64,000 nucleotides of DNA from Patescibacteria group bacterium (GCA_040389185.1 JAZKAJ010000007.1:5127-69126); one strand, 5' to 3'; positions 1,258 to 49,010 are shown, counted from the stretch's first letter. Notes: generated from the sequence alone by a model not told the origin. Numbers and translations: made by a program.

Positions 1258-1362
1258 CTTGTCCCGTTAAAAAATCACCAAATCCATGGTGAACAATATG
1301 ATTATAATTAGACAGACTTTAGCAGAAACAAGAGATTACTCTTTAATTTTTTAATTGGGATG
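1258..1362 (+). promoter_or_regulatory. thrS leader with long-range start-codon-sequestering helix (degenerate member of the leader family)
   Basis: The distal arm CUUGUCCCGUUAAAAAAUC (1258-1276) can pair with the proximal arm AUUUUUUAAUUGGGAUG (1346-1362), which contains the thrS ATG. The same distal motif CUUGUCCCGUUA occurs in the gyrB leader. Confidence 0.4.
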
Positions 1363-4581: not shown

Positions 4582-6045
4582 ATGTCTCAAGACCCACACA
4601 TTATTGTAGAAGACCATACAAACGATGCTCCAAAGAAGAGTAACTCTATTGTTCGTGGAGCAATTATAGTTGCAATTATCCTCGTACTCCTCTTTATCGC
4701 GCTTGCTATAGTTAAATTCGTACCAAAACTTATTTCTTCATTCGGTACTGCGAGTGTTTCTCTCTCTTCGCTCTTTAGCCCAAAAGAAAACATTACTGTA
4801 AGTGCTCCCTCTGAAGTGAAGAGTGGTTCGCCATTCACAGTAAGTTGGAAAAACAATGTGACTGAACCTGCAGGTTCACTTATGTGGAGCTACCAATGTG
4901 CTGACAATGTCACTGTTGAATATACTTCAACAGGAGGTCAGAGACCGGTTATTTGTAACACCCTCTTCCCCCTTCCAGCAACTGGCAACAGCTATTCTTT
5001 TGTTGCAAAAAACTCTGGTACAGCGAGTGTACCTGTCACAATGACAGTGGCACTCTATGATGCTGATATGAAAACTGTAAAGGTGCAAGGATCTACAAAT
5101 ATGACAGTACTCGCACCTGGAAGCACAGCAACTGTTGTCTCACAGTACAATCCTGATTACAGTGCCACAACAACACCAAGTACAAACAACAACTCAACAA
5201 ATACAAATACTAACGGAACAACAAAAACAACAACCAAGACAACTACGAACAATACTAATTACAATACAGGAGTTACAAATGGAACACCTGACTTAAGTGT
5301 GAGCCTCGTAAAGGTTGGACGAACACAGAACGACGGTTCATACATAAGTACAAATTCATTTGCAGAAAATGATCGAGTGACCGTGATATTTAAAGTAACA
5401 AATACCGGTACAGCTCGCTCTGGAACTTGGAGTCTCCGAGCAGATCTTCCTACAAAGACACAATCTGACAAAGTATATGTTTCTAACGCGCAGCCAGCAC
5501 TTAATCCTGGAGACTCATACCAGATGACAATCTCATTTGATGCCTTTGATCCAAACGGACGAAATATTATAATCACTATAAGCAACAACGACTACAACCA
5601 ATCAAACAATGTTTTGAATATTCCAGTCACTTCAAATGGTAACAATTCAAACAACGATAACAACAATAGCACCGGAAGTCGCCCAGATCTTACAGTCAGA
5701 ATCATTGATGTTGGAACAATGGGTAATAACAACCAGTTCTACTACTCAAACTCGCTTAATAGTAATGACAAGATCGCAGTAAAGTTTGAGATCCAGAACA
5801 TCGGCGGATCAAATTCTGGAAGCTTCCGATTCACTGCTGATCTCCCAACAAGTGACAACAATACATTCGAATCAAGTAATCAGTCATCACTTGCTCCGGG
5901 CGAAACAAGACAATACACACTTGGATTTGATAATCCAGACACCGGAACAAATACGATCACAATCGATGTCGACTCTGATAATGATATTCGAGAAAACAAT
6001 GAGAACAATAATGATGACTCGATGAGAGTTCGAATCAATAACTAA
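4582..6045 (+). CDS. membrane-anchored surface protein with Thr/Asn-rich linker and CARDB-like repeats
   Basis: N-terminal TM helix, an STN-rich low-complexity linker, and repeated PDL(S/T)V...VKVG segments typical of CARDB domains. No C-terminal LPXTG. Confidence 0.6.
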   Translation: MSQDPHIIVEDHTNDAPKKSNSIVRGAIIVAIILVLLFIALAIVKFVPKLISSFGTASVSLSSLFSPKENITVSAPSEVKSGSPFTVSWKNNVTEPAGSLMWSYQCADNVTVEYTSTGGQRPVICNTLFPLPATGNSYSFVAKNSGTASVPVTMTVALYDADMKTVKVQGSTNMTVLAPGSTATVVSQYNPDYSATTTPSTNNNSTNTNTNGTTKTTTKTTTNNTNYNTGVTNGTPDLSVSLVKVGRTQNDGSYISTNSFAENDRVTVIFKVTNTGTARSGTWSLRADLPTKTQSDKVYVSNAQPALNPGDSYQMTISFDAFDPNGRNIIITISNNDYNQSNNVLNIPVTSNGNNSNNDNNNSTGSRPDLTVRIIDVGTMGNNNQFYYSNSLNSNDKIAVKFEIQNIGGSNSGSFRFTADLPTSDNNTFESSNQSSLAPGETRQYTLGFDNPDTGTNTITIDVDSDNDIRENNENNNDDSMRVRINN

Positions 6046-6149: not shown

Positions 6150-8317
<2,168 letters not shown>

Positions 8318-8982: not shown

Positions 8983-10959
8983 TTAGCGGACAAGCCACTT
9001 ATTTTCCACAAGCGCACCGGTTATTCTCTCCATCACTTTATTTACCTCATCATCAGTAAGTGTCTTTTCATATGATTGAAACACGAGTCTGAATGCAAAA
9101 GAAGTTTTTTCTATTGCGCCCGTTTCTTTATTTGTCTTTTCAAACACATCAAAGAGTTCGTGACGAACCAAGAGATCTCCTACGTGAGTTTCTATCACAT
9201 GCCAGACTTTTCCTGCATTTGATTTGTCCCCTTCTACAAATACCGCAATATCTCGAACCATAAATGGATACGGAGAAGGTGCTTTATATTTCTTTACTTC
9301 TTTTGAAACAGGAATTTTGATTGATTCCTTTAGTTCAGGAAGACCTGCGATAAGGGCTTCAAAATCAACCTCCATTATTCCATCAAGATTATTTGTCATT
9401 CCGATTGATTTACCTCCTTTTGAAATAATCCCGCCACTATCATCCACCGTACACAGTATCTCAATTTTTGATCCTAAATGTTCGAAAAGTTCATCTCGTA
9501 CCACCTTGATCTCATCATTTGGTCTCTCGCCTTTCTTTGCTTTCTTATATGCAATACCGATACAAAGCGACAGAAATTCTCTCCCATCTTTCCACACTCG
9601 TCCAAATTCAAATACTTTGATCTTGTTTTGACCCAAAAGATCTGCATAATAAATATTATTTTTTAACTTCTCCTCCATTTGTGTTAAGAGATCTGTTCGG
9701 AGACTTTTCTTGTCTTCTGCAAGAGGATTCATTATTTCAACCTCTCCTTTTGGAGCCAATGTATATGACTGCACCTCACTAAATCCTCTTTCAATAAGGA
9801 AATTACGTACAATATTTCGATATGTAATATCATTGTTCAAAACAACTGGAATACTGATAACGGGAAGTGTTCCTTCAATATTCTCATACCCATAAAGCCT
9901 CCCAACCTCATCCACAATATCTTCTTTTATATTCAAATCCCTTCTTCCATCTGTTGGATATACCGCAATTAAAGCACCTTCTCGCCGTGCATTTATTGAT
10001 GCATTCTTTAGTAGCTCTATAATTGTTTCAGACGAAATTTCTTTTCCGAGCTTTTCACATATAAACTCAGGTGATACTTCAACCTTTTTTTCACTCTTTT
10101 TTGCAAGACCTGCAGACGAGATAGCGCTTACAGTAATCTCTGGATTTTCTTTTTTGAGTAATGAAACGAAATAGTTCAACGCTTCAATTGTGAGCATAGA
10201 GCTTACTCCATTTTCAAATCTCTTTGATGAATCAGTTTTGATATTGAGTTTTGTTGAAGTTTTACGTACGAGGCTTGCAACAAAATGTGCGGATTCAACA
10301 ATCACATGATCAGAATTATGAGTGGTCTCAGCTAGTTTGCCGCCTTTGATCCCAGCGATTGCAAGAGGATTTTTTTCATCTGCAATAACAACAATGCTCG
10401 AATCAAGCTTTACTTCTTTATTGTCCAAAGTGGTTATAGCTTCTCCCGTTCTTGCATATCGAACCACAATATCGCCCGATACCTTTTCTGCATCAAACAC
10501 ATGCATCGGCTGTCCAATATCAAGCATCACAAAGTTTGCAATATCTGCAAAGATATTGATAGATCGCTGTCCTACCGCTTCGAGCTTCTCTTTAAGCCAT
10601 AGAGGTGAATCAGCTTTTGTCACATTCATAATCCGGGTTGCATTATATGAATCACAAAAATCTCCCGCTTCGACAGAAACATTGACACCCATAACATCAT
10701 CAGCTTCGATTTCAGGAAGTATGCGAGGAATGAATTCATTGTCCGGAATGAGCGCCGCAAGCTCTTGTGCGACACCTTGATGTGAAAGACAGTATGATGC
10801 CCGATCTGGAAGCACTTTCACATCGAGGATATCATCGGTTGTTCTTTTCTCAATTCCCTCAACTTCAAAAATATGGAATGTCAAAAGCTCCGCAATCTTG
10901 TCGGACGACGGAAGAGGTTTCTTAAAATATGTCTGGAGCCACTTGTGTGAAATTTTCAT
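8983..10959 (-). CDS. pheT: phenylalanine--tRNA ligase beta subunit
   Basis: 658 aa. The N-terminus MKISHKWLQ... and domain order (B3/4, B5, catalytic-like, FDX-ACB) fit PheT. Confidence 0.88.
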   Translation of the reverse strand: MKISHKWLQTYFKKPLPSSDKIAELLTFHIFEVEGIEKRTTDDILDVKVLPDRASYCLSHQGVAQELAALIPDNEFIPRILPEIEADDVMGVNVSVEAGDFCDSYNATRIMNVTKADSPLWLKEKLEAVGQRSINIFADIANFVMLDIGQPMHVFDAEKVSGDIVVRYARTGEAITTLDNKEVKLDSSIVVIADEKNPLAIAGIKGGKLAETTHNSDHVIVESAHFVASLVRKTSTKLNIKTDSSKRFENGVSSMLTIEALNYFVSLLKKENPEITVSAISSAGLAKKSEKKVEVSPEFICEKLGKEISSETIIELLKNASINARREGALIAVYPTDGRRDLNIKEDIVDEVGRLYGYENIEGTLPVISIPVVLNNDITYRNIVRNFLIERGFSEVQSYTLAPKGEVEIMNPLAEDKKSLRTDLLTQMEEKLKNNIYYADLLGQNKIKVFEFGRVWKDGREFLSLCIGIAYKKAKKGERPNDEIKVVRDELFEHLGSKIEILCTVDDSGGIISKGGKSIGMTNNLDGIMEVDFEALIAGLPELKESIKIPVSKEVKKYKAPSPYPFMVRDIAVFVEGDKSNAGKVWHVIETHVGDLLVRHELFDVFEKTNKETGAIEKTSFAFRLVFQSYEKTLTDDEVNKVMERITGALVENKWLVR

Positions 10960-11349: not shown

Positions 11350-12054
11350 TTAAAATTGATTAACAAATCTTAAATCTGCTGTATAAAGTTCTCGAATATC
11401 ATTCAAGCCATATTTCACCGCAAGAAGTCTGTCGATTCCTCCTCCGAATGCAAAGCCTTGCCATTTGGTCGAATCCACTCCTGACGCCTCAAGCACATTT
11501 GGATGGATAAGTCCTGCACCCATCATTTCAAGCCACTTGCCTTTCCACTGCATATCCACTTCCACTCCAGGCTCGACGAATGGGAAAAAGCTCGGACGAA
11601 ACCGTATCTCAGCATCCTCGCCAAAATATTTTTTGAAGAAATGTGTAAGCACACCTTTAAGATCAGCCATCGATACCACCTTGTCTACAAAGAGTCCTTC
11701 AAATTGATGAAACTGCGCTTCATGTGTTGCATCGGTCGCTTCATTTCGGAATACTTTTCCAGGAACAATGATCGCCATTGGAGGCTTGTGTGTTTCCATA
11801 TATCGGATCTGCATCGGAGATGTATGAGTTCGAAGAAGTTTTGCTTCTTCACCTTCTTTTCTTTTTAGCCAAAAAGTATCCTGCATATCTCGTGCCGGAT
11901 GATCAGCAGGAAAATTAAGTGCTTCAAAATTATAATGATCTGTTTCAACTTCAGGTCCTTCAACAATAGAAAAACCAATATCATTGAAAATATCTGAAAT
12001 CTCTTGCACAGCTTGAGTAATGAGATGGTAGTGACCTTTTTGATTTGATTGCAT
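11350..12054 (-). CDS. pheS: phenylalanine--tRNA ligase alpha subunit (short form)
   Basis: 234 aa with PheS class II motifs (FNFEALNFPADHPARDMQDTFW, GFAFGGGIDRLLAV). Confidence 0.9.
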   Translation of the reverse strand: MQSNQKGHYHLITQAVQEISDIFNDIGFSIVEGPEVETDHYNFEALNFPADHPARDMQDTFWLKRKEGEEAKLLRTHTSPMQIRYMETHKPPMAIIVPGKVFRNEATDATHEAQFHQFEGLFVDKVVSMADLKGVLTHFFKKYFGEDAEIRFRPSFFPFVEPGVEVDMQWKGKWLEMMGAGLIHPNVLEASGVDSTKWQGFAFGGGIDRLLAVKYGLNDIRELYTADLRFVNQF

Positions 12055-12240
12055 CCCGTTCGAAATAGGAAGCGCTTATCGCCTCCCAGTATTATTTAAT
12101 AAATGATAATGATTACTCTCTAGCATATTTTGCTCTGAAACTAAGCGCTTCCGTAGTATATGTGAATTTAAAATGCTTATCGTGCTTTTGCCTTATTGTA
12201 ATATGTAACTCTGGACAACTGCAGGATTTCGAACGGGACC
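12052..12240 (-). promoter_or_regulatory. pheS leader: nested long-range helices sequestering the start codon (leader family)
   Basis: In mRNA sense the distal arm GGUCCCGUUCGAAAU (12240->12226) pairs with the proximal arm AUUUCGAACGGGAUG (12066->12052). An inner helix GGAAGCGCUU (12150->12139) pairs with AAGCGCUUCC (12076->12067). Confidence 0.5.
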
Positions 12241-12348: not shown

Positions 12349-15300
12349 TCATTTTATTAATGAATTCAACACTTCCCTCGTCTTTGGTCCAAAGTATCCT
12401 ATAGCAGGAGTAATATTGTATGCTTTTTGAAATTTGATCAGAGCTGCTTTTGTTGCAGGACCAAAATATCTTGTCTCGAATCCAGAAGATCCAGGACCAG
12501 CTACGGCAATAGGAAAATTGTGTGTATTGAGGAAGATCTGGAGATATTTTATATCATCACTTCGTATAGTTCCGAATGGAATGTCTTTAGTGAAGGTAAA
12601 GCCGAGTGTGGTATTGATCGGGGAGGTTCGAACACTTGGAATATTCGGAATTTGAGAAATTGATTTTGAACACGCTTCTCCTGTAAGAATACTGAAATTA
12701 AATCCTTGAAAACATCCTGGAATAGTGGGTTCTGTAGTACGACAAGGAAGACCGGTATTTGTATCAAATCTCTCTCCTCCCAAACAAGTGGGAAGATGAG
12801 GAGGAGTATTATTATTAATTTGAGTTCTTGAAATAGAACTTGCTGAACCACTTGTATTTCTAGTTCCCTCTTGTTCCGGCGCTTGATCTGTTGACTCAGA
12901 TGTAATAGCGAAAGAAGTGAGAGGAAGCGGAGTACTTGTGTTACCAGCATTATCAGTCACAGCAATCGTGCAGTTCAAATATGTTCCGACTGTGAGTGTA
13001 GAGAGAGTGATTGTATTAGAACCTGAAGATACACTTGTCGTCACACTACTACAAGATCCACCATATGTAATTGTACCGGCTTCAGTTGTTGAAAAAGTGT
13101 AGTTTGGGCTAGTGTTTGTTCCAGAAGTGACCGGTGTGATCTCTGCCAGTGACGGTAAAGTAGTGTCGATTGTTATTGAGAGTGCAGGTGATGCACCACT
13201 TTCATTACCCACAGAATCTACTTCAGTGTATGTGATACTATGCACTCCAGGATCTAAGGCAGTACTTGTAATTGTAAAATTATCTGAATTGCATCCGATA
13301 TAATTATTAAATATCCTATCAACATATAGATTCACTTGAATATCAGTACATGTGCCAGTAAATGTTGGTGATGTGTCGTTCGTTACATTATCCGTCGATG
13401 ATGCGCCCGTATCACTTGAAGAATCCAGGTCTGGTGCAGAAGAAGGTGTAGAAGGTGGAGTAGTGTCTACAGTCGCGGTAGTGGTCGCAACATCTGAAAA
13501 GTTACCGATGGTATCATAGGCAAATATTGAGTAGTGATACGTCCCATCAGGTACATTTGCAAGATCCCAAGATGTTCCACTAAGTCCTGTAACTACCGCT
13601 CCACCACTATTTGGATCAGTTACATATCCTACAGTAGTACCAAATACACTTACAGTTGAAAAATCAGAATCTATTGGATTAATCCACGAAAGATGAACAT
13701 TACCTCCTGATGGATTGGCAGTGAAGCTTGTCGACGCACTAGGCGCTGTAGTATCAATAACAATATCATTATTTGCACCAAGACTTCCCGTGGTACCTGG
13801 ATCAGGCAAAGTGAGGTTTGCGTCTATAGATGAAGAGGTACTTTTAATGCTTCCACTGTTTAAATCGAGCGCGGCGTTTGTTGCATAATCAAGGTCAGTC
13901 GAGTTGTCTCCATCTTGTACAGTATATGCAAACACCAAGGTGTCACTGCCAGAGCCTGAAGCATAAGTCGCAACAGCATCTGTTGTATCACTTGTCTCCA
14001 GAGTAAGATGCGGTGTACCCATGACTGTAACCGCCTCTGAAAAATGAACCTGTATTTCTACATTACCACTACTTGCAAACGCTCCTGAATTTGTAGAATC
14101 CACAGAAGTGACAGTTGGAGCTTGTGCCGCATACTGAAAAGTACCTCCGTTTGTCTCCACAAAAGTAGTATTGGAATCGTATGTTGCACCCGATACATCC
14201 ACAACAACACCAGGACCATCAGCAACCACAGTCCACGGATAAGGATCTTGTGTGAAATCTCTTACTGTAGTTATACTAGAAGTATATCTACGAGTAAGTG
14301 GGCCTTCTATAGAACCGCTAATATATGCACTTAAATCACCGTTAAATATAGCACTCGAGTTAAGAGTGCCTCCCCGATTCTGACTTGAATCGTTGAATGT
14401 AGCATCACCGGCTATAGTCCCATTATTGTATGAAGAATCATTAAAGACAGCATACGTTGTAATCATGCCCTCATTATGGGCACTATTATTGAAGGTAGTC
14501 GTAGCAAGCTCTCCACCATTGTACGTAATCCCACCATTACTATTTATATAGCCCCTGTTGAATGTTGCCCCATTCATAGCTTGAATATTTATATCTATAT
14601 ATCTATCATCTAGAGATGGTGAAAAGGTAAAAGTGTTTACTGTCGGAACACCGATTGATGATGTCCATATACCGTCTACAGCAATCACATCATCGGTAGA
14701 ATCTGGCGTGGCAGTAGTAGGTATGATAAAGGAAGAATCAATTCTCCAATTTCCCACATTACCCCAATCATTATTATTGATTGAATTGAAATATTTTCTT
14801 GTACTATTTACAGTCCCGGACGTACCCGCTACACCAGCAGTACCAGTCTGACCAGTTGAACCTACTAAACCGGTTTGCCCATTTGATCCAGAAGCGCCAG
14901 CGGAACCGTCTGCGCCGTTCGTACCGTTGCTACCATTTACACTTCCACAACCATTTTCATCACACCCTGGACTCGAACCACTTCCCCCACTTCCGCCAGA
15001 GCCACCAGAACCAGGACTTCCCGCAACCGCAGTGCCCCCGCCACCTGGCAGACCAGCAACACCGGCTGAACCAGCGGTGCCTGCTGAATATACTATGCTT
15101 CCGAATTGACTCAAGCTATCAATCGATACATTGCCCCCATTACCTCCATTACCTCCATTACCAGCATCACCTCCATTACCTCCATTACCAGCAGTACCAC
15201 CATTACCAGCGTCACCACCAGGACCACCAAGTCCGCCATTGCCACCATCTGTTCCGTTACAATTACAAGAAGGTACATCCGCACTACCACCAGGACCACC

Positions 15301-16134
15301 ATTTCCACCGGTACCTCCGTTACCTCCATTTGCACTCCCCCCATAACCACCACGGCCACCATTGCCGCCATTTGCACCATTACCACCATCTACAGAAATT
15401 ACAGCAAGGGAATGTATATTTGCATTAATTAAAACTATGTGGCCTCCATTGCCCCCATTACCACCATTTGCACCAGCAGATCCAGCTGTACCGTCCCCAG
15501 GACTTCCACCACCTGTACCGGCAGTACCAGCACTTCCACCACCCCCAGCATAAGCAGTAGGACCTCCTGCTCCCGGATCACCATCTATACCTCGATCCCC
15601 GTTTGTACCGTTAGCATCGCTGGTATTTGAACCATCATTGCCACTAGCCCCAGCATATCCATTTCCACCATTTGATTGTAGCTTGTCGTACACCGTCGAA
15701 GTCGCAATCGTGATATCCCCACCATTAGAACCGTCGGGTGAGCCAGCATCACCATTTGCACCATTTGCTGTAAGTCCGCCATGTACAATTGCATTTTGTA
15801 CTCTAAAACTGTAAGCATTATTTCCAGCAAAGCCGCCATTTGCAGAAATACCATCGGGACCACTAATTTGATGGCCTGCACCATCGATTATTACCCCATC
15901 AGATTGAATAGTAATACAAACTCCCGAAGAAGTTATAATATCTTGGGTCAATGTATATGTACCTGGATCAGTAATAGTCTGACAACTAGATATTTCAGTT
16001 GTTAACGGCACCGCCCGGGTCGTTTTTGGAAATAAAAAAACTCCTCCAACAGAAAAAAGAGTAATCGTAAAAATCATGAGAGGTGAAACAAAGCTATATA
16101 CTCGCTTTAACGTTCGTGATTTATAGATGGACAT
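12349..16134 (-). CDS. giant secreted surface protein (1261 aa): beta-helix-like N-terminal region, Gly/Asn-rich repeats with a collagen-like G-X-Y run, Ig-like/Thr-Ser-rich repeats, C-terminal peptidoglycan-binding domain
   Basis: N-terminal signal/[10 protein letters not shown]-type low complexity. A strict triplet run [36 protein letters not shown]-terminal ...[33 protein letters not shown] matches the PG_binding_1 signature. Overlapping alternative-frame ORFs are low-complexity artefacts. Confidence 0.8.
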
Positions 16135-18903: not shown

Positions 18904-20634
18904 TTATCTTTTGACAATAAAATCTCCCAGCACAAGAACATCAAAATTATTGTTTAAAAAAGTTCGTATCGCATCTTCGGGTGTACAAACAATAGGCTCG
19001 TTATCATTAAATGAAGTATTAAGAAGCATAGGCACTCCTGTCATATCTTCAAAACAAGAAATCAAATTATAATATCTTTCGTTCGTTTCTTCTCTTACAG
19101 TTTGAATTCTTGCAGTATGATCAATTTGCTGAATTGCTGGCACAAGAGGAATTTTATCTTCTTTGACTTTAAAAGAAAAAAGCATGAAATCTGTAGAAAT
19201 TGGAATTATTGTCGATGAAATATCAAACCAATCTTTTGCCTTGGTATACAGAACACTCGGCGCAAAGGGCCTAAAAGATTCTCTCTTTTTAATTATCTTA
19301 TTCATCTTTTCTTTCATCTCTATGGTTCGAGGATCTGCAAGCAATGATCTATTACCGAGAGCACGAGGGCCGAATTCCATTGCTCCCTGAAACCATCCAA
19401 CAATCTTTCCTTCAGCTAATAAATGTGCTGTTTCCTGAGCAATATCATCAGATTTTTTATATATTAATTTATTACTATTTATAGCAGTCAAGATTTCTTG
19501 TTCGTTGAAAGTGGGCCCTAAGTAAGCATCGTTCATAATGAACACTCTCTTATTTCCTAAGATATTTGCCCAGACATATATTGCGGCCCCCAATGCTGTG
19601 CCCGCATCGTTTGAAGCGGGTTGTATATATACATCATCAAATAAACCTGTCTCAAGAACAGCTGAATTCATTAGACAATTCAAAGCCACCCCTCCAGATA
19701 AACATAGGTTAGTAGAATTAGTCCGCTTTTTCAAAAACTCAACAAGACCAATCACAATCTCTTCAGTAATTTTTTGTAACGATGCGGCAATATGAACATA
19801 GTCTGTCTTCAAATATTCGTCAGACCACTTTTCAATTTTTTTTAAACCAAACAATTTCTCTAATGGACCAAAATCATCTGACCTGAATTTAAAAATATTA
19901 TTATCGACAGTAAAATCACCCTCTCCAATTTTCACCACTGTCTTAAATTTATCTATATACTTTTGAGGATCACCGTAAGCCGTGAAGCCCATTACCTTAC
20001 CTGCATCATATTCTGAAAATCCCAAAAATTTAGCAATTTTTTCCCAAATAAAGCCAAGTGAGTTTGGATATTCAACTTCACCCACTTTTTCTATTTTATT
20101 ATCTTTCCCATGGCCTAAAAATGCACTATCAAACTCCCCTATACCATCAATTGCAAGAACCGCCGCATCAACAAAAGGTGACACAAGATAGGAACTTGCA
20201 GCATGTGCTAGATGGTGTGGAATCCAGTGTATTTTTTTACTTATATCTACCCCGTAATACTCTGATAATTTGTTAGGGAAATTGTTTAATTTATTAAAAA
20301 ACATTTCCTCACCTTCTTTTGTGCCCCAATCACCAGATTCCTTTTCTTCTACCACATCAATATTTCTTAGACGATCCTTAGGAAAGAAAGATAGAGCAAT
20401 GAAATTCACGTCACTAAATTCTATGCCCGCATATTTTATACAGAAATTTATTGAGTTAACTGGAATGAGATCAGGGTTATCTACTCTAGCCTCCTTCCCA
20501 CGCTTAATACGAGTAAATCTTTCTTCTTCGGCCGCAGCGAGAACTTGACCGTCTTTTATAATACAGGCAGATAACTCATGATAAGCGTGATTAATGCCGA
20601 GAATATAGATTGGTTTATCTGTAACTAATTTCAT
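18904..20634 (-). CDS. carbamoyltransferase (NodU/CmcH/TobZ family)
   Basis: 576 aa. N-terminal ILGINHAYHELSACIIKDGQVLAAAEEERFTRIKRG... is typical of the carbamoyltransferase N-terminal ASKHA-like domain, with a C-terminal YrdC-like region. Confidence 0.75.
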   Translation of the reverse strand: MKLVTDKPIYILGINHAYHELSACIIKDGQVLAAAEEERFTRIKRGKEARVDNPDLIPVNSINFCIKYAGIEFSDVNFIALSFFPKDRLRNIDVVEEKESGDWGTKEGEEMFFNKLNNFPNKLSEYYGVDISKKIHWIPHHLAHAASSYLVSPFVDAAVLAIDGIGEFDSAFLGHGKDNKIEKVGEVEYPNSLGFIWEKIAKFLGFSEYDAGKVMGFTAYGDPQKYIDKFKTVVKIGEGDFTVDNNIFKFRSDDFGPLEKLFGLKKIEKWSDEYLKTDYVHIAASLQKITEEIVIGLVEFLKKRTNSTNLCLSGGVALNCLMNSAVLETGLFDDVYIQPASNDAGTALGAAIYVWANILGNKRVFIMNDAYLGPTFNEQEILTAINSNKLIYKKSDDIAQETAHLLAEGKIVGWFQGAMEFGPRALGNRSLLADPRTIEMKEKMNKIIKKRESFRPFAPSVLYTKAKDWFDISSTIIPISTDFMLFSFKVKEDKIPLVPAIQQIDHTARIQTVREETNERYYNLISCFEDMTGVPMLLNTSFNDNEPIVCTPEDAIRTFLNNNFDVLVLGDFIVKR

Positions 20635-27364: not shown

Positions 27365-27952
27365 TTATTTAATCTTGTTTTGTAAGTATCTTCTAAATCC
27401 GAGGAAAGCAACAATTACAAGAATACCAAATGCAATGATCGATACTTTGCCAAACACTGAGTCGATTGTAAGATACAGATTACTAAAATAATATCCTACC
27501 CCGAGAAGCATTCCGGTCCATACAAGCTGAGCAAAACCATTTACGAACATATAAAATCCAAAAGGGATTCTGACCATTCCAGCAGTAAAAAGTGTTACGA
27601 GAGCAAAGCCAAATCCATTGCTTATTTTTGAAATAAATAGTATAGGTTTTTTGTATTTATGAAAGATTTGTGTTACTTTCTCCACCCTTTCTTCTGTAAT
27701 ACTAAAATATTCACCATATCTTTTTACAAACTTATGACCAAATCTAAATCCAAGATAGTACCAGAGAGCATCACCTATCAAATCCCCGATCATAAGTGAC
27801 ACATATACAGGTACAACGAATAAATGTCCAAGCCTCAAAAGTACCCCGCAAATAAGTGACAAAAAAGGTCCCTCAAGAAATCCTAATATAATAAGGATCG
27901 AGTAGACGAGATACACATGATTTGTAGATAAATCAATCAAGTAAGCTTCCAT
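27365..27952 (-). CDS. DedA/VTT-domain family membrane protein
   Basis: Polytopic membrane ORF with the DedA-like segment ...GPFLSLICGVLLRLGHLF...YLGFRFGHKFVKRYGE. Confidence 0.65.
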   Translation of the reverse strand: MEAYLIDLSTNHVYLVYSILIILGFLEGPFLSLICGVLLRLGHLFVVPVYVSLMIGDLIGDALWYYLGFRFGHKFVKRYGEYFSITEERVEKVTQIFHKYKKPILFISKISNGFGFALVTLFTAGMVRIPFGFYMFVNGFAQLVWTGMLLGVGYYFSNLYLTIDSVFGKVSIIAFGILVIVAFLGFRRYLQNKIK

Positions 27953-29635: not shown

Positions 29636-30169
29636 TTAATAAAGCTCAGGATTTTCCAAATGTAAAAGCGCCATTTTGACTGCACTTTTATTGAATGCAG
29701 TTCGATTCATTCTTCCTTTTGTAAGAATACTAATAAGACCTTCATGTTCTCCCAGCTTATCATGTTGAGTGAGCCCTGCGGCTTTCATAGCCTGACTTCC
29801 ATCAAGACCTTTGTTCAAGATTCCATCTATCGCTGCTTTTGGCCATTCGCAAGCTTCGGATAGTCCTAAGTGGATTTGTTTACCATCATATATCGCACAA
29901 ACAGCTACTTCCATATATCCAGATTTTGTTTGAGGTACCGCCATAAGTCCACCCTCAATTCCAAATCCATAATCATTGCCCACATATGCCTGTTTTGCAC
30001 GATCGATTGCACCTGCCACAGTTTCATCAATATTTTTTGGATGTCCAAATTCATCAACCTTCACATCAACCCCTACAACTTCAGCACTCTCAAACATTGG
30101 GTAGTCGAGTAGTAATTCTTGAACGGCATTAACCTTTGTCTTATTTTTTGACCCTACTCCGATTTTCAT
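29636..30169 (-). CDS. probable inosine/xanthosine triphosphatase (YjjX/DUF84-like)
   Basis: Pattern KVNAVQELL...VGVDVKVDEFGHPKNIDETVAGAIDRAKQA resembles the YjjX family. Moderate, from recalled similarity. Confidence 0.5.
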   Translation of the reverse strand: MKIGVGSKNKTKVNAVQELLLDYPMFESAEVVGVDVKVDEFGHPKNIDETVAGAIDRAKQAYVGNDYGFGIEGGLMAVPQTKSGYMEVAVCAIYDGKQIHLGLSEACEWPKAAIDGILNKGLDGSQAMKAAGLTQHDKLGEHEGLISILTKGRMNRTAFNKSAVKMALLHLENPELY

Positions 30170-44550: not shown

Positions 44551-44785
44551 ATTTATCCTAGAAAATTTTACCTATTAAAAAGTCGGTTTTACACCAATAT
44601 TATACCCTATCTTAAATATGAATAATATAACGTAGTGCGTCCAGAAAAGAAATCATGCCGAGCCGACTTTTTTGTTATGCAATATTCACCTTCTTGACCC
44701 AAGATTACAAAATAGGCCTAATTAAATTATATTAGATAGTATTTAGTTAAGCCTATATTGCATAACGATATAAGAATTATAGTCC

Positions 44786-44845
44786 AACTTCGACTCGGAT
44801 GCTGTGTACGAGAGTACTCGTCCACGCACTCCTCGCTCGTTGGAA
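44786..44845. repeat. Conserved intergenic motif copy 1: CGACUCGGAUGCUGUGUACGAGAGUACUCGUCCACGCACUCCUCGCUCG
   Basis: Shares CGACUCGGAYGCUGUGUACGA and GAGAGUACUCRUCCACGC.CUUCUCGCU with 51731-51856, where about 60 nt are inserted between the two halves. Contains the palindrome GAGUACUC. Confidence 0.5.
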
Positions 44846-44872
44846 TAGGTAAAACTTTAGAGGATGAATGTA

Positions 44873-45340: not shown

Positions 45341-45427
45341 AGAGAAATTATGAAGGATTATGTACTAAGTATCAAGCAAAGCTAAAATATTTACAAAATC
45401 AAATTTTAATGTTTAAATTGGGGTTAT

Positions 45428-45554
45428 GGATCCCGTTCGAAGCCGCGGTCACGATGTAATTTTCGAACGAGATAGCAACAAAACATTAGCCAGAGATTTA
45501 TATAACTTAATTTAAGCATAAGCGAGTGATCGCGACCTGCTTCGAAACGGGATG
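45428..45554 (+). promoter_or_regulatory. rsmG leader: inverted repeat GGAUCCCGUUCGAAGC (45428-45443) / GCUUCGAAACGGGAUG (45539-45554) enclosing about 95 nt; the proximal arm contains the start codon
   Basis: 13-14 bp complementarity read from the sequence, with possible extension via CGCGGUCACG / CGAGUGAUCGCG. A partial extra copy UUUCGAACGAGAU lies at 45461-45474. Confidence 0.5.
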
Positions 45555-46250
45555 GAAGAATTTAAAAAATACGCCGAAAAAGAAGGTACCAAAATAACAG
45601 ACAAGATCATTGGCGACCTTGAGCTCTATCTTAAGGAGCTTCTGGAATGGAATGAGAAGTTCAATCTCACAGGTATTACAGATCCGAAAGACATCTGGCA
45701 CAAGCATTTTATGGACTCCCTCACAGTCTTCAAATCAATCCCTGAAAAGGCGATCAAAGTAATCGATATTGGTACTGGTGCAGGATTTCCAGGACTTGTG
45801 ATTCAAATCCTCAATCCCCGACTCCACCTGACTCTTATGGATGCAACAGGCAAAAAAGTAGAGTTTTTGAAACACATGATCAAAAAACTAGAACTCAAAA
45901 ACGCAATCGCACTCCAGAATCGTGCAGAGATCTTGGGACATAATCCAAGCTATCGAGAAAGCTTCGATGTAGCACTTTCTCGAGCTGTCGCACTCCTCCC
46001 CACTCTTCTTGAATATGTGATGCCTTTTATAAAAGTAGGTGGAATATTTATTGCACAAAAAAAAGATGGTGTTGAAGAAATCGAATCATCGACAGAAGCA
46101 ATCAAAACACTTGGTGGAAATATAAAGGAAAAGACAAAGATAGATTCAGATATTCTCCCTGAAAGACAACTCATCATTATAGAAAAAATAAAAGATACTC
46201 CAAAAGAATATCCTCGAGCAGAGGGCTTGGCTAAAAAAAGACCACTCTAG
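45552..46250 (+). CDS. rsmG: 16S rRNA (guanine527-N7)-methyltransferase RsmG (GidB)
   Basis: SAM-binding VIDIGTGAGFPGLV and the RsmG-typical region with a C-terminal extension. Confidence 0.85.
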   Translation: MEEFKKYAEKEGTKITDKIIGDLELYLKELLEWNEKFNLTGITDPKDIWHKHFMDSLTVFKSIPEKAIKVIDIGTGAGFPGLVIQILNPRLHLTLMDATGKKVEFLKHMIKKLELKNAIALQNRAEILGHNPSYRESFDVALSRAVALLPTLLEYVMPFIKVGGIFIAQKKDGVEEIESSTEAIKTLGGNIKEKTKIDSDILPERQLIIIEKIKDTPKEYPRAEGLAKKRPL

Positions 46251-47111: not shown

Positions 47112-47168
47112 ATTTTTAATGATAACAAATTTTTAGAAAGTGTCATCGTAGTATATAATTTACCAATG

Positions 47169-47363
47169 ATCCCGTTCGAGATCACTCAATTAAGTAATCA
47201 AACTTAATTTAAGATTTTCACAAAACGGACTAATCATATTATATGTTAATAAACAACGGAAGTGCTCGGCAAGATAAATTAATATTTGCATATATTACTA
47301 AAACTTATTAATTAAATACTGATAGCAAGTGTGTCAAAAGCACTTCCTATCTCGAACGGGATG
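47169..47363 (+). promoter_or_regulatory. Leader of the FAD oxidoreductase gene: outer helix AUCCCGUUCGAGAU (47169-47182) / AUCUCGAACGGGAU (47349-47362) and inner helix GGAAGUGCU (47259-47267) / AGCACUUCC (47339-47347); the ATG at 47361 lies inside the outer helix
   Basis: Perfect 14-bp and 9-bp complementarities read from the sequence. Same architecture as the pheS leader, with compensatory base changes. Confidence 0.5.
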
Positions 47364-49010
47364 ACACAAACACAAATAGATGAAATAAAATCGATCATTA
47401 AAGGAGATGTTGATTTTAGTGACGAAACACTAAAGTCACACTCAAACGACGCGAGTCTTTTTGAAATTAGACCGGAACTTGTTGTATATCCAAAGGATAC
47501 AGAAGACATAAAAGCACTTGTAAATTTTGTAAACAAGCACAAAGAAACTGATCCAACACTTTCTATCACCGCTCGAAGCGCAGGAACTTGTATGTCAGGA
47601 GGCTCAATCAACAACTCAATCATCCTCGACTTTACAAAATATATGAATCGAATTATTGAGGTCAATCTCGTACACGGAATTGTAGAGCCAGGTTGTTACT
47701 ACAGAGATTTTGAAAAAGCGACTCTTGCGAAAAAAAGAATCATGCCAACCTATACAGCCTCAAAAGAAATCTGTGCAGTAGGTGGAATGGTAGCCAACAA
47801 TTCAGGAGGAGAAAAATCAATCAAATATGGTAAGACAGAAAACCATATTGAGAAACTGAAGATGGTGTTTGTTGATGGTAATGAATACGAGATAAAACCA
47901 CTTACCCACATTGAGCTTCTAGAGAAGACTACCGAGAATACTTTTGAAGGTAAAATGTACAAACAACTTTACGATCTTATTCTGGAAAACAGAAAAGAGA
48001 TCTTTGAAGCGAAACCAGATGTATCAAAAAACTCTGCTGGATATTACCTTTGGAATGTGGTGGACGATAATGAAGGATTTGATCTTTGCCGCCTTATTGT
48101 TGGAAGCCAAGGAACACTAGGAATTATTACTGAGATTACATTCAAACTTGTGCCGACAGAACCGTACGCAAATCTTCTTGCGGTATTTATGCCGGATATT
48201 ACACAAATAAGTAACATCGTAAACGAGATACTCCCCTTCAAGCCAGATAGTCTTGAAACATACGATGACTACAGTATGGAACTCGCAGTTAAATTCTTTT
48301 TTGATTTCTTCAAATCTCTCGGATTCTTTGGAGCCATCAAGCTTGGACTCAAATTTATTCCTGAAGCAATGATGATACTCACAAGAGGTGTACCAAAGCT
48401 CATTCTTCTTGTCGAGATCACAGGACAAAATCAAAAAGAAGTAAAAGACAAACTTGTAGCAATCGAAAACAAAATCCGACACTTTGGTTACAAAATGCAC
48501 ATCGCAAAAGATGAAGGTGAAGCGGACAAATATTGGAGAATCAGAAGAGAGAGTTTCAACATGCTTCGAAAACATGTACACAATCAGAGAACAGCACCGT
48601 TTATTGATGACATTATCGTGAAGCCTGAATTTCTTCCAGAATTCCTACCAAAGGTACGTGCGCTCATTGATGAGTACAAGCTCACCTACACTATCGCAGG
48701 ACATGCAGGTAATGGCAACTTCCACATCATCCCACTTATGGATCTCGACTCCCCTTTCTCCGCAGATACAATCCTTGAGCTTTCGACAAAAGTATATAAT
48801 CTCGTACATGAATACAAAGGATCTATCACAGCAGAACACAATGATGGAATTATCCGAACACCGTACTTGAAACAAATGTATGGAGACAGAATGATAGAAA
48901 TATTCCAAAAGACCAAAAATATCTTTGACCCACAAAACATTTTTAATCCAGGTAAAAAGGTAGGAGGAACTTTTGAAGATATCAAAAAATATATCAAGAA
49001 GAAAAATTAA
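47361..49010 (+). CDS. FAD-binding oxidoreductase (FAD_binding_4 / GlcD-like dehydrogenase)
   Basis: FAD-binding PCMH-type domain (ITARSAGTCMSGGSINN, VGGMVANNSGGE) and a C-terminal FAD-oxidase_C-like region. The ORF track starts at GTG 47331; the conserved leader motif ...CGAACGGGAUG supports the ATG at 47361. Confidence 0.75.
   Translation: MTQTQIDEIKSIIKGDVDFSDETLKSHSNDASLFEIRPELVVYPKDTEDIKALVNFVNKHKETDPTLSITARSAGTCMSGGSINNSIILDFTKYMNRIIEVNLVHGIVEPGCYYRDFEKATLAKKRIMPTYTASKEICAVGGMVANNSGGEKSIKYGKTENHIEKLKMVFVDGNEYEIKPLTHIELLEKTTENTFEGKMYKQLYDLILENRKEIFEAKPDVSKNSAGYYLWNVVDDNEGFDLCRLIVGSQGTLGIITEITFKLVPTEPYANLLAVFMPDITQISNIVNEILPFKPDSLETYDDYSMELAVKFFFDFFKSLGFFGAIKLGLKFIPEAMMILTRGVPKLILLVEITGQNQKEVKDKLVAIENKIRHFGYKMHIAKDEGEADKYWRIRRESFNMLRKHVHNQRTAPFIDDIIVKPEFLPEFLPKVRALIDEYKLTYTIAGHAGNGNFHIIPLMDLDSPFSADTILELSTKVYNLVHEYKGSITAEHNDGIIRTPYLKQMYGDRMIEIFQKTKNIFDPQNIFNPGKKVGGTFEDIKKYIKKKN

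Follow-up and report, generated by a model that had tools for sequence, protein, structure and literature searches.

In a stretch of DNA of 64,000 nucleotides from a Patescibacteria group bacterium (the window; GC 38%), which protein searches assign to the Parcubacteria/Paceibacteria ('Candidatus Taylorbacteria'), five genes, thrS, gyrB, pheS, rsmG and that of a FAD oxidase, are preceded by leaders in which a distal arm is complementary to the sequence next to the start codon. The question raised by such leaders is whether they are regulatory RNAs controlling the genes downstream, or whether they reached these genes in some other way. The initial annotation of the window had left the choice between a previously undescribed translational control element and a MITE-like element that supplies start codons. 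The analysis reported here favours the second possibility. In particular, it is probable that the five leaders are lineage-specific insertions of internally deleted, non-coding, MITE-like derivatives of a small element of Parcubacteria and, with the same degree of confidence, that they are decayed copies of a tiny GIY-YIG mobile element that targets start codons.

At each of the five genes an insert of 99-192 nt is found, whose 3' arm abuts the ATG and whose arms pair with each other, (T)CCCGTT.GA... with ...TC.AACGGG(A) (Table 1). All five arm pairs proposed by the initial annotation were recovered by inspection of the sequence, by RNAfold, by an arm scan, which returned exactly five copies in the window, and, in full or in part, by a covariance model of metagenomic copies; the accompanying claim that the five genes begin with CGGGAUG holds except at thrS, where TGGGATG is read. 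Four exact matches to the 11-mer TCGAACGGGAT or its complement exist, plus a copy with one mismatch at 12229-12239, against a chance expectation of ~0.03 exact matches per 128 kb, and all of them fall within arms, namely those of the copies at rsmG, the FAD oxidase gene and pheS; at two mismatches the count (14 vs 13 expected) is at chance level. The long-range helix is part of the minimum free energy structure in five of five copies, with RNAfold z-scores of -4.2 (rsmG), -7.3 (FAD oxidase), -3.6 (pheS), -2.0 (thrS) and -0.5 (gyrB), the last two folds scarcely beating those of shuffled sequences.

Table 1. Positions in the window of the five inserts, their inverted repeats (TIR, terminal inverted repeat; P2, subterminal inverted repeat) and the flanking target duplicates
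Feature	Position	Strand	Evidence or remark
rsmG copy, 122 nt, non-coding	45431..45552	+	arms, RNAfold, arm scan, covariance model
rsmG copy, TIR arms	45431-45445 / 45539-45552	+	
rsmG target duplicate ATGGA, upstream	45426..45430	+	opens 29-codon uORF
rsmG target duplicate, downstream (rsmG start)	45552-45556	+	
FAD-oxidase copy, 192 nt, non-coding	47170..47361	+	RNAfold, arm scan, nhmmer with coding-element model
FAD-oxidase copy, TIR arms	47170-47183 / 47348-47361	+	
FAD-oxidase copy, P2	47258-47266 / 47339-47347	+	
FAD-oxidase target duplicate ATGA, upstream	47166..47169	+	opens 13-codon uORF (MIPFEITQLSNQT, then stop)
FAD-oxidase target duplicate, downstream (true start of the gene)	47361-47364	+	
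pheS copy, 185 nt, non-coding	12054..12238	-	RNAfold, arm scan, nhmmer
pheS copy, TIR arms	12238-12224 / 12066-12054	-	
pheS copy, P2	12152-12142 / 12078-12068	-	
gyrB copy, 101 nt, degenerate	8213..8313	-	RNAfold, covariance model
gyrB copy, arms	8313-8299 / 8227-8213	-	P2-like hairpin 8242-8229
thrS copy, 99 nt, degenerate	1262..1360	+	RNAfold, covariance model
thrS copy, arms	1262-1276 / 1346-1360	+	P2-like hairpin 1330-1343

The window copies are recovered by a covariance-model search of the kind proposed in the initial annotation. Specifically, a model trained solely on 35 metagenome copies of a 120-nt class matches over full length the rsmG (31.9 bits, E 3e-4), gyrB (27.4 bits, E 0.003) and thrS (23.5 bits, E 0.016) copies, and in part those of pheS and the FAD oxidase, with nothing convincing beyond the five in the 64-kb window. 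Moreover, a DNA model of the coding form of the element, described below, gives nhmmer matches in the pheS and FAD-oxidase inserts, positions 12240-12129 of the former being aligned to model positions 5-119. An intact GIY-YIG ORF is absent from the 64-kb window, as searched in six frames with hmmsearch.

The borders of the inserts are informative. The rsmG copy reads ...ttATGGA-TCCCGTTCGAAGCC...GCTTCGAAACGGG-ATGGAAG, with CGCGGTCAC and GTGATCGCG prolonging the outer helix, and the FAD-oxidase copy reads ...ccaATGA-TCCCGTTCGAGATC...ATCTCGAACGGG-ATGACAC; in these two of the five copies the target duplication is intact. At pheS, which on the minus strand reads ...actactgg-TCCCGTTCGAAATC...ATTTCGAACGGG-ATGCAAT, the upstream duplicate has decayed to CTGG, and it is decayed as well at thrS and gyrB, whose copies form a degenerate subtype, ACTTG-TCCCGTTARAAAATCAC...CTCTTTAATTTTTAATYGGG-ATGG. 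The ACTTG (1257-1262; 8318-8313 on the minus strand) lies to the left of the 5' arm, where the ATG duplicate would be expected, and its presence in both copies is left unexplained by the insertion model. Just 5' of the P2-like hairpin the same two copies carry (GG)ACAAG (1327-1331; 8245-8239), complementary to CUUGU(CC), which provides an alternative partner for the 5' end; at thrS, ~25 extra nucleotides separate the promoter from the arm. At 45463-45473 the rsmG copy repeats the 3' arm internally in nearly identical form (TCGAACGAGAT), and local pairing of this segment with the 5' arm could compete with the long-range helix.

The comparison with related genomes separates a conserved leader from an acquired one. 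The FAD oxidase gene of two relatives (91% identical in L001, 87% in L002) is leaderless and has no insert (...gTATATAATttggtaATGactcaaacacaaatag), and the rsmG site of L002 is likewise empty, tgtttaaatgaatggatATGGAAGAATTC (tgTTTAAATgaatggatATGGAAGAATTC). In two further relatives (L159 and L160, with GyrB 94% and 91% identical) the gyrB, pheS and thrS sites are empty and the genes leaderless. In other words, the orthologous sites are empty at five of five genes in relatives of 87-94% protein identity, which indicates that the inserts are lineage-specific. In the more distant L019 and L027, whose FAD oxidase is 67% identical at the protein level, a copy of the rsmG type (CCCGTTAGAAGCCGCGATCGC...GCGATCTGCTTCTAAGCGGG, ~5880-6003) stands at the same FAD-oxidase start codon; it either struck this site independently or is old and shared.

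To place the five copies in a wider family, metagenome contigs were scanned with TTCCTAYYTCKAACGGGAT, leaving the next base free. At least 124 matches in at least 120 stretches were obtained and, among the 124 listed, the next base is G, completing an ATG, in 112; an ORF of >=80 aa, or one reaching the contig end, follows in 83 of 91 listed matches. The hosts sampled encode SSB, ribosomal proteins S2 and L3, a class II aminoacyl-tRNA synthetase, Dus, methionine aminopeptidase, MurG, a Mur ligase, sugar nucleotidyltransferases and FtsH, that is, diverse and unrelated housekeeping functions; at these loci the enrichment in a gene class for which the initial annotation had advised looking is absent. 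Six or seven more copies have the opposite orientation, each where a gene of the complementary strand begins. Orientation relative to the host gene is biased ~15:1, non-coding copies included. A second ATG precedes CCCG by 5-7 nt in 92 of the 107 forward copies listed (86%), and the bases following the two ATGs match (for example ATGCAA/ATGCAA, ATGCG/ATGCG and ATGAG/ATGAG), the repeat reaching 2.1 nt past the ATG vs 1.05 in shuffles (maximum 1.32 in 1000). Counted from the ATG, the flanking direct repeat measures 4-6 nt, and the logo of the reconstructed target carries information at ATG-A/G-A only.

As far as flanking sequences can establish it, then, the element enters ATGRA start codons with a duplication of 3-5 nt (TG-N-N); the original ATG is left upstream, and that of the host gene is new, being composed of the terminal A of the element and the duplicated TG. 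The simplest symmetric form is A-TGNN-(T-CCCG...CGGG-A)-TGNN, with 3-5 bp duplicated and the last A of the element rebuilding the ATG. The earlier suggestion of a MITE-like element supplying start codons was therefore essentially correct. The transcription start of leaderless genes was considered as the target and rejected: a -10 box at the right distance is found in just 28 of 90 copies, which points to the start codon (ATGRA) itself.

Insertion appears to be repeated and recent, as indicated by tandem copies (...CGGGATGAATCCCG...) and by a pair of different genes that carry the same 196-nt non-coding copy, the latter being also an indirect hint of mobilisation in trans by the enzyme of the parent. 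Tandem or nested copies were observed at L079, L086, L112, L120, L125 and L135 (...CGGGATGAATCCCGTTAGA...), the last being a copy within a copy, and imply that the regenerated ATGAA site was struck again. Overall, the copies fall into size classes of ~85, ~120, ~190 and ~278 nt. The viral contigs scanned gave one chance in-frame match only. In several copies (L037, L042, L049, L056 and L119) CCCG is directly preceded by (T)ATAAT or ATTAAT, a mutated form of the upstream ATGAAT, and the uORF start is lost; the change in L049 makes a perfect TATAAT box, with the predicted transcription start inside the 5' arm. A 5-bp target combined with purifying selection may not fully explain why ~90% of copies occupy true start codons, given that ATGAA must occur elsewhere in intergenic DNA; nor does it account for the ~15:1 orientation bias.

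The longest size class reveals the nature of the parent. The full element, of ~278 bp, reads T-CCCGTTAGAGAT...ATCTCTAACGGG-A, and its sole gene encodes a stand-alone GIY-YIG protein of 83-95 aa, UPF0213-like (for example MFYVYVLQNKNKRWYTGYTEDLRKRFNQHN...REKYLKSGMGKRYLKNRLKRFLSLTG, then stop). The ORF is intact in 23 of 24 copies of this class; the protein matches Pfam GIY-YIG (PF01541) with E ~1e-15 and no other domain, and the residues of the catalytic motif are invariant across the coding copies. A median dN/dS of 0.18, at dS ~1.5, indicates that the ORF is under purifying selection. The terminal inverted repeats encode the two ends of the protein, PVRD at the N-terminus and LSLTG plus stop at the C-terminus, while the 5' strand of P2 encodes LRKRF and its 3' strand KRFL; the basic C-terminal tail KYLKSGMGKRYLKNRLKRFLSLTG, contributed by P2 and the 3' arm, is peculiar to this family.

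The frame joins the nuclease to its host gene at both ends. In 8 of 20 coding copies the host ATG is fused in frame with the element (MNPVRD...); in the remaining ones the frame from the host ATG stops after 4-15 codons, and in the examples inspected (L043, L156 and L157) this mini-ORF ends 2-6 nt before an internal ATG. At the other end the TGA stop of the nuclease usually overlaps the host ATG (ACG GGA TGA; ATGA), one subfamily having instead a TAA stop 7 nt upstream of it. Judging from the reading frames, the nuclease ORF is thus read from the initiation site of the host and ends at or near the host ATG. After the intact GIY-YIG copy of L156 the regenerated start is now GTG (CGGGGTGAA, 10255-10261), the upstream copy being still ATG.

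Short copies keep traces of this gene, as their semi-conserved GTCGAGA and internal CGGGAT are remnants of the ARSRE and YTGYT codons; the idea that the internal CGGGAT was designed as an anti-sequestor was accordingly rejected, the motif deriving from the YTGYT (YIG) codons. The window arms, CCCGTT(A/C)GA... / ...TC(T/G)AACGGG, also bound 278-nt GIY-YIG copies. If short copies are mobilised in trans, a GIY-YIG copy with CCCGTTCGAG arms would be expected; among the copies listed no coding one with the CCCGTTCGA arm variant of the window was seen. The window copies have traits of MITEs: they are small, non-coding and dispersed, share their terminal inverted repeats with a parent, are associated with target duplication and show presence/absence among relatives.

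The protein family is large: in Parcubacteria a protein search returned 6233 clusters (90% identity), whose members measure 85-86 or 94-95 aa and carry no more specific name than 'GIY-YIG nuclease family protein' or, wrongly, that of 'excinuclease ABC subunit C'. Two genes found by this search, without use of the DNA pattern, have the same arms, the duplication and the 4-nt ATGA overlap, the genes that follow them being ftsH and one for a DUF4430 protein. By sequence, the nearest solved structures are the UPF0213 proteins 1ZG2 (E 5e-10) and 1YWL (E 4e-3).

A Shine-Dalgarno-like 4-mer precedes none of the 49 ATG-initiated ORFs of the window, and in 18 of them the ATG follows the end of a -10-type hexamer by 5-9 nt, a signature of leaderless genes; many genes show TATAAT 6-8 nt before the ATG, as at 12349-16134, 18904-20634, 27365-27952 and 29636-30169, all on the minus strand. 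This implies, on sequence criteria, that leaderless mRNAs would be widespread in this Parcubacterium, a trait of which no mention was found for this group in the literature searched. A -10 box lies just upstream of the 5' arm in all five leaders. Specifically, the promoter-like sites of rsmG (TTTACA-18-TAAATT, ending at 45419) and of the FAD oxidase gene (TTTAGA-16-TATAAT, ending at 47159) end 6 nt before the upstream ATG, and the transcript is therefore predicted to start there and to hold both arms. With promoters upstream of the arms, an effect of the inserts on translation becomes plausible. A promoter within the 3' arm was rejected: the hexamer 7 nt ahead of the ATG, TATCTC/TATTTC, does not end in the conserved T, and rsmG has no such box.

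From these features a mechanism can be proposed. The GIY-YIG protein would be a mobility nuclease with the inverted repeats and the ATGRA target as its sites of cutting, and the host gene following a full element would be translated by termination-reinitiation coupling. For the decayed copies of the window, the transcript would begin at the upstream ATG, and ribosomes engaged on the short uORF would unfold the helix as they cross codons 2-6, in the 5' arm, and the host ATG would thereby become accessible. Simple coupling cannot apply to most non-coding copies, in which the uORF stop is far from the host ATG, at varying positions; in the short copies a conserved uORF peptide, or a stop beside the host ATG, is absent, frames and stops being variable. 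In its most complete form the proposal is that the ~278-bp GIY-YIG unit is an autonomous transposon that colonises start codons, hijacks host initiation and returns the ribosome through the regenerated ATG, and whose non-coding progeny give essential genes structured leaders dependent on the upstream AUG and on the helix. This broader reading is advanced tentatively, its chances being somewhat short of even. If true, the host genes would be translated by unmasking, by processing or by transfer between the duplicated AUG-NN sites; the element would be the smallest known transposon by far, and the first prokaryotic one with a GIY-YIG nuclease; and a function would be provided for the widespread stand-alone GIY-YIG proteins of the UPF0213 type.

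It has to be considered what the helices are for. P1, the outer helix, is formed by the terminal inverted repeats, and P2, the inner one, by the subterminal ones. The covariation noticed in the initial annotation is real: P1 variants (AGAGAT, AGAAAT, AGAGGT and AGAAGT) are concordant between the two arms in 104 of the 117 copies listed, the variant of the window having a C-G pair in place of A-T. P2 measures at least 6 bp in 107 of 117 copies, with 58 distinct stems, and in 22 coding copies, where it spans ~150 nt, double changes affect 6 of 14 pairs, with a covariation score of 0.167 vs 0.084 in shuffles (none of 500 as high). The double changes coincide with the codons of RKR and KRF; in the protein alignment the residues encoded there are invariant or nearly so, which suggests that these changes are largely synonymous. 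In addition, the thrS and gyrB arms run through a G-C, G·U, A-U series, with pairing kept and matched 1-nt insertions. Taken together, the compensated changes of arms and P2 and this series indicate that selection on a folded strand, either RNA or single-stranded DNA, is real.

The main alternative is an RNA structure, exapted or designed by the element, with P1 and P2 acting in the mRNA. Such a role is compatible with a mobile origin; on present evidence it is possible, if on the unlikely side. The structure might mask the host AUG until the upstream ORF is translated, or be a substrate of RNase III whose cleavage restores a near-leaderless mRNA, or bring the two identical AUG-NN sites side by side, letting the ribosome pass over the insert at initiation. 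Several observations speak for it: the predicted +1 at the upstream ATG, with both arms transcribed; the persistence of that ATG in most copies; the orientation bias, shared by non-coding copies; the compensatory changes in P1 and P2, the thrS and gyrB arms staying paired through a G·U intermediate and matched insertions; the essential host genes, which must stay expressed; and the RNase III gene present in a relative. Moreover, the helix predicted by RNAfold extends from 2-3 nt past the 5' AUG to the first two bases, A and U, of that of the host gene. The earlier claim that the start codon is sequestered is thereby borne out only in part, the start region being partly paired and the pairing of the AUG limited to its A and U. 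On the other hand, ~98% of the pairs of P1 and P2 are Watson-Crick, with G·U at only ~1% and not in excess relative to A·C, which is atypical of an evolved RNA helix. In particular, G·U vs A·C counts are 6 vs 9 in P1 (the target-derived position left out) and 7 vs 3 in P2, and an asymmetry that would be the sign of sense-strand RNA folding is seen in neither. Also against it, most copies are young, so that the features kept may only mirror their age, and uORF stop positions are unconserved. The pairing pattern looks more like one acting at the DNA level, in end recognition or in folding during movement, than like a long-evolved RNA helix, although the helix data as a whole are fitted equally well by folding of DNA and of RNA. 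On the insertion reading, the long-range helix is primarily the inverted repeats of the element and not an evolved regulatory RNA.

A second alternative accepts mobility and concerns its agent: the GIY-YIG gene would be a selfish gene of the homing-endonuclease type, or a cargo, spread by double-strand-break repair or by an unlinked transposase of the host or of an insertion sequence. This is unlikely, even if the characterised mobile GIY-YIG genes are all homing or retroelement endonucleases (Dunin-Horkawicz et al. 2006), a survey of the superfamily that goes no further than raising the question of other members being molecular parasites. In NCBIfam the closest model is a group I intron endonuclease, with a weak match under the cutoff, and Pfam finds in the element protein no recognised transposase family or fold (DDE, HUH, serine or tyrosine), both points in favour of homing. 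Against it stand the many unrelated host genes with no flanking homology beyond ATGRA, the target duplications and terminal inverted repeats, the purifying selection on an ORF inside the element, and the failure to find a larger autonomous unit, or a larger ORF, within the same arms, a search of 1.19 Mb for arm pairs 330-5000 nt apart having returned none. The parent has the catalytic domain of a homing endonuclease and lacks, at 85 aa, the additional DNA-binding domain for a long homing site in a cognate allele, its target information being limited to ATG-R-A. The likeness to phage T4 seg/mob genes and I-TevI is that of a selfish GIY-YIG nuclease gene wedged between or into host genes; unlike these, the element has an 85-aa catalytic domain alone, terminal inverted repeats, a target duplication, non-coding derivatives and hundreds of unrelated sites with only ATGRA in common.

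A dedicated family of cis-regulatory leaders (riboswitch, RNA thermometer or protein-binding operator) for the five genes is very improbable: the start region is paired, folds beat shuffles in three or four copies, covariation is present and two of the genes encode aminoacyl-tRNA synthetases, but the lack of the inserts in orthologues at 87-94% protein identity largely refutes it, and the unrelated housekeeping hosts with no gene-class enrichment, the flanking direct repeats, the poorly conserved interior made of decayed coding sequence, the protein-coding parent, the almost purely Watson-Crick helices and the lack of an Rfam match all argue against a translational control element as the origin. 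In the window Rfam gives only three tRNAs at the gathering threshold and, in E-value mode, nothing at the leaders, no ribozyme being detected there in either mode; together with the lack of a T-box sequence, this agrees with the earlier exclusion of a T-box. RNA thermometers, riboswitch platforms and T-boxes do share with the leaders a 5' region pairing directly upstream of the AUG, and differ from them in that here the structure is unconserved between orthologues, is tied to no gene class, has no ligand-binding core and involves no Shine-Dalgarno sequence. The integron attC site was also rejected, its core motifs being in reverse order and the insert holding no cassette.

Returning to the insertion of a mobile element, the window features are MITEs in form, and their mRNA hairpins recall the Correia elements (NEMIS) of Neisseria. 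With these and other bacterial MITEs they share small size, lack of coding capacity, terminal inverted repeats, a short target duplication, presence/absence between close relatives and co-transcription with the neighbouring gene, with a long hairpin in the mRNA, which in the Correia element is a substrate of RNase III. Unlike these, the parent is a 278-bp element encoding a GIY-YIG protein and not a DDE insertion sequence, insertion takes place at the start codon itself with regeneration of the ATG, and a second, covarying subterminal inverted repeat and a strong orientation bias are found. The UPF0213/YhbQ-like proteins (PDB 1ZG2, BH0048; 1YWL, EF2693) have the same single-domain size as the element protein; unlike it, they have no assigned mobile role and lack the tail described above. 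The T4 gene 60 bypass cassette with mobA, the mitochondrial 'byp' elements and the IStrons are alike in that the harm of a mobile insert in an expressed gene is removed after transcription, and the matching codons on both sides of the insert resemble those of bypassing; here the inserts measure 99-278 nt and lie before codon 1, and the full element relies on an ordinary stop/start overlap.

The parent is unlike both the known insertion sequences and the GIY-YIG homing endonuclease genes. There is a substantial chance that it represents a new transposon class. Known autonomous insertion sequences start from ~700 bp, and a unit of ~280 bp with its own nuclease, ends and duplication would undercut them. 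To our knowledge, no prokaryotic GIY-YIG transposase has been reported, and GIY-YIG would join the enzyme families employed for transposon-like spread in bacteria; no description of a GIY-YIG element at start codons was found in the full-text literature searched. Start-codon targeting, ATG regeneration and the stop/start overlap would render the parasite both expressed and harmless. Since Shine-Dalgarno sequences are missing and many genes are leaderless, the inserts offer a natural experiment on how such ribosomes find their starts.

A further consequence regards genome annotation. The mechanical ORF call for the FAD oxidase gene begins at a GTG, 47331, inside the element, when homologues place the true start at the ATG 47361, and the inserts will thus mislead gene callers; in CPR annotations they give rise to false upstream starts of this sort and to spurious small ORFs, such as calls of 94-95 aa beginning 'MNPVRD...'. 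Two minor features of the window are also worth recording. The PheS protein (11350-12054, minus strand) counts only 234 aa, and 238-261 aa in relatives; as bacterial PheS is typically of ~330-350 aa, the N-terminal domain is seemingly missing in this lineage. Finally, an intergenic block of ~320 nt (44552-44870), edged by imperfect inverted repeats of 26 nt (44551-44576 / 44844-44869) and with no Rfam match, is missing at the syntenic site of L001 and mostly present in L002; it might represent either a further small mobile element or a gene for an sRNA.
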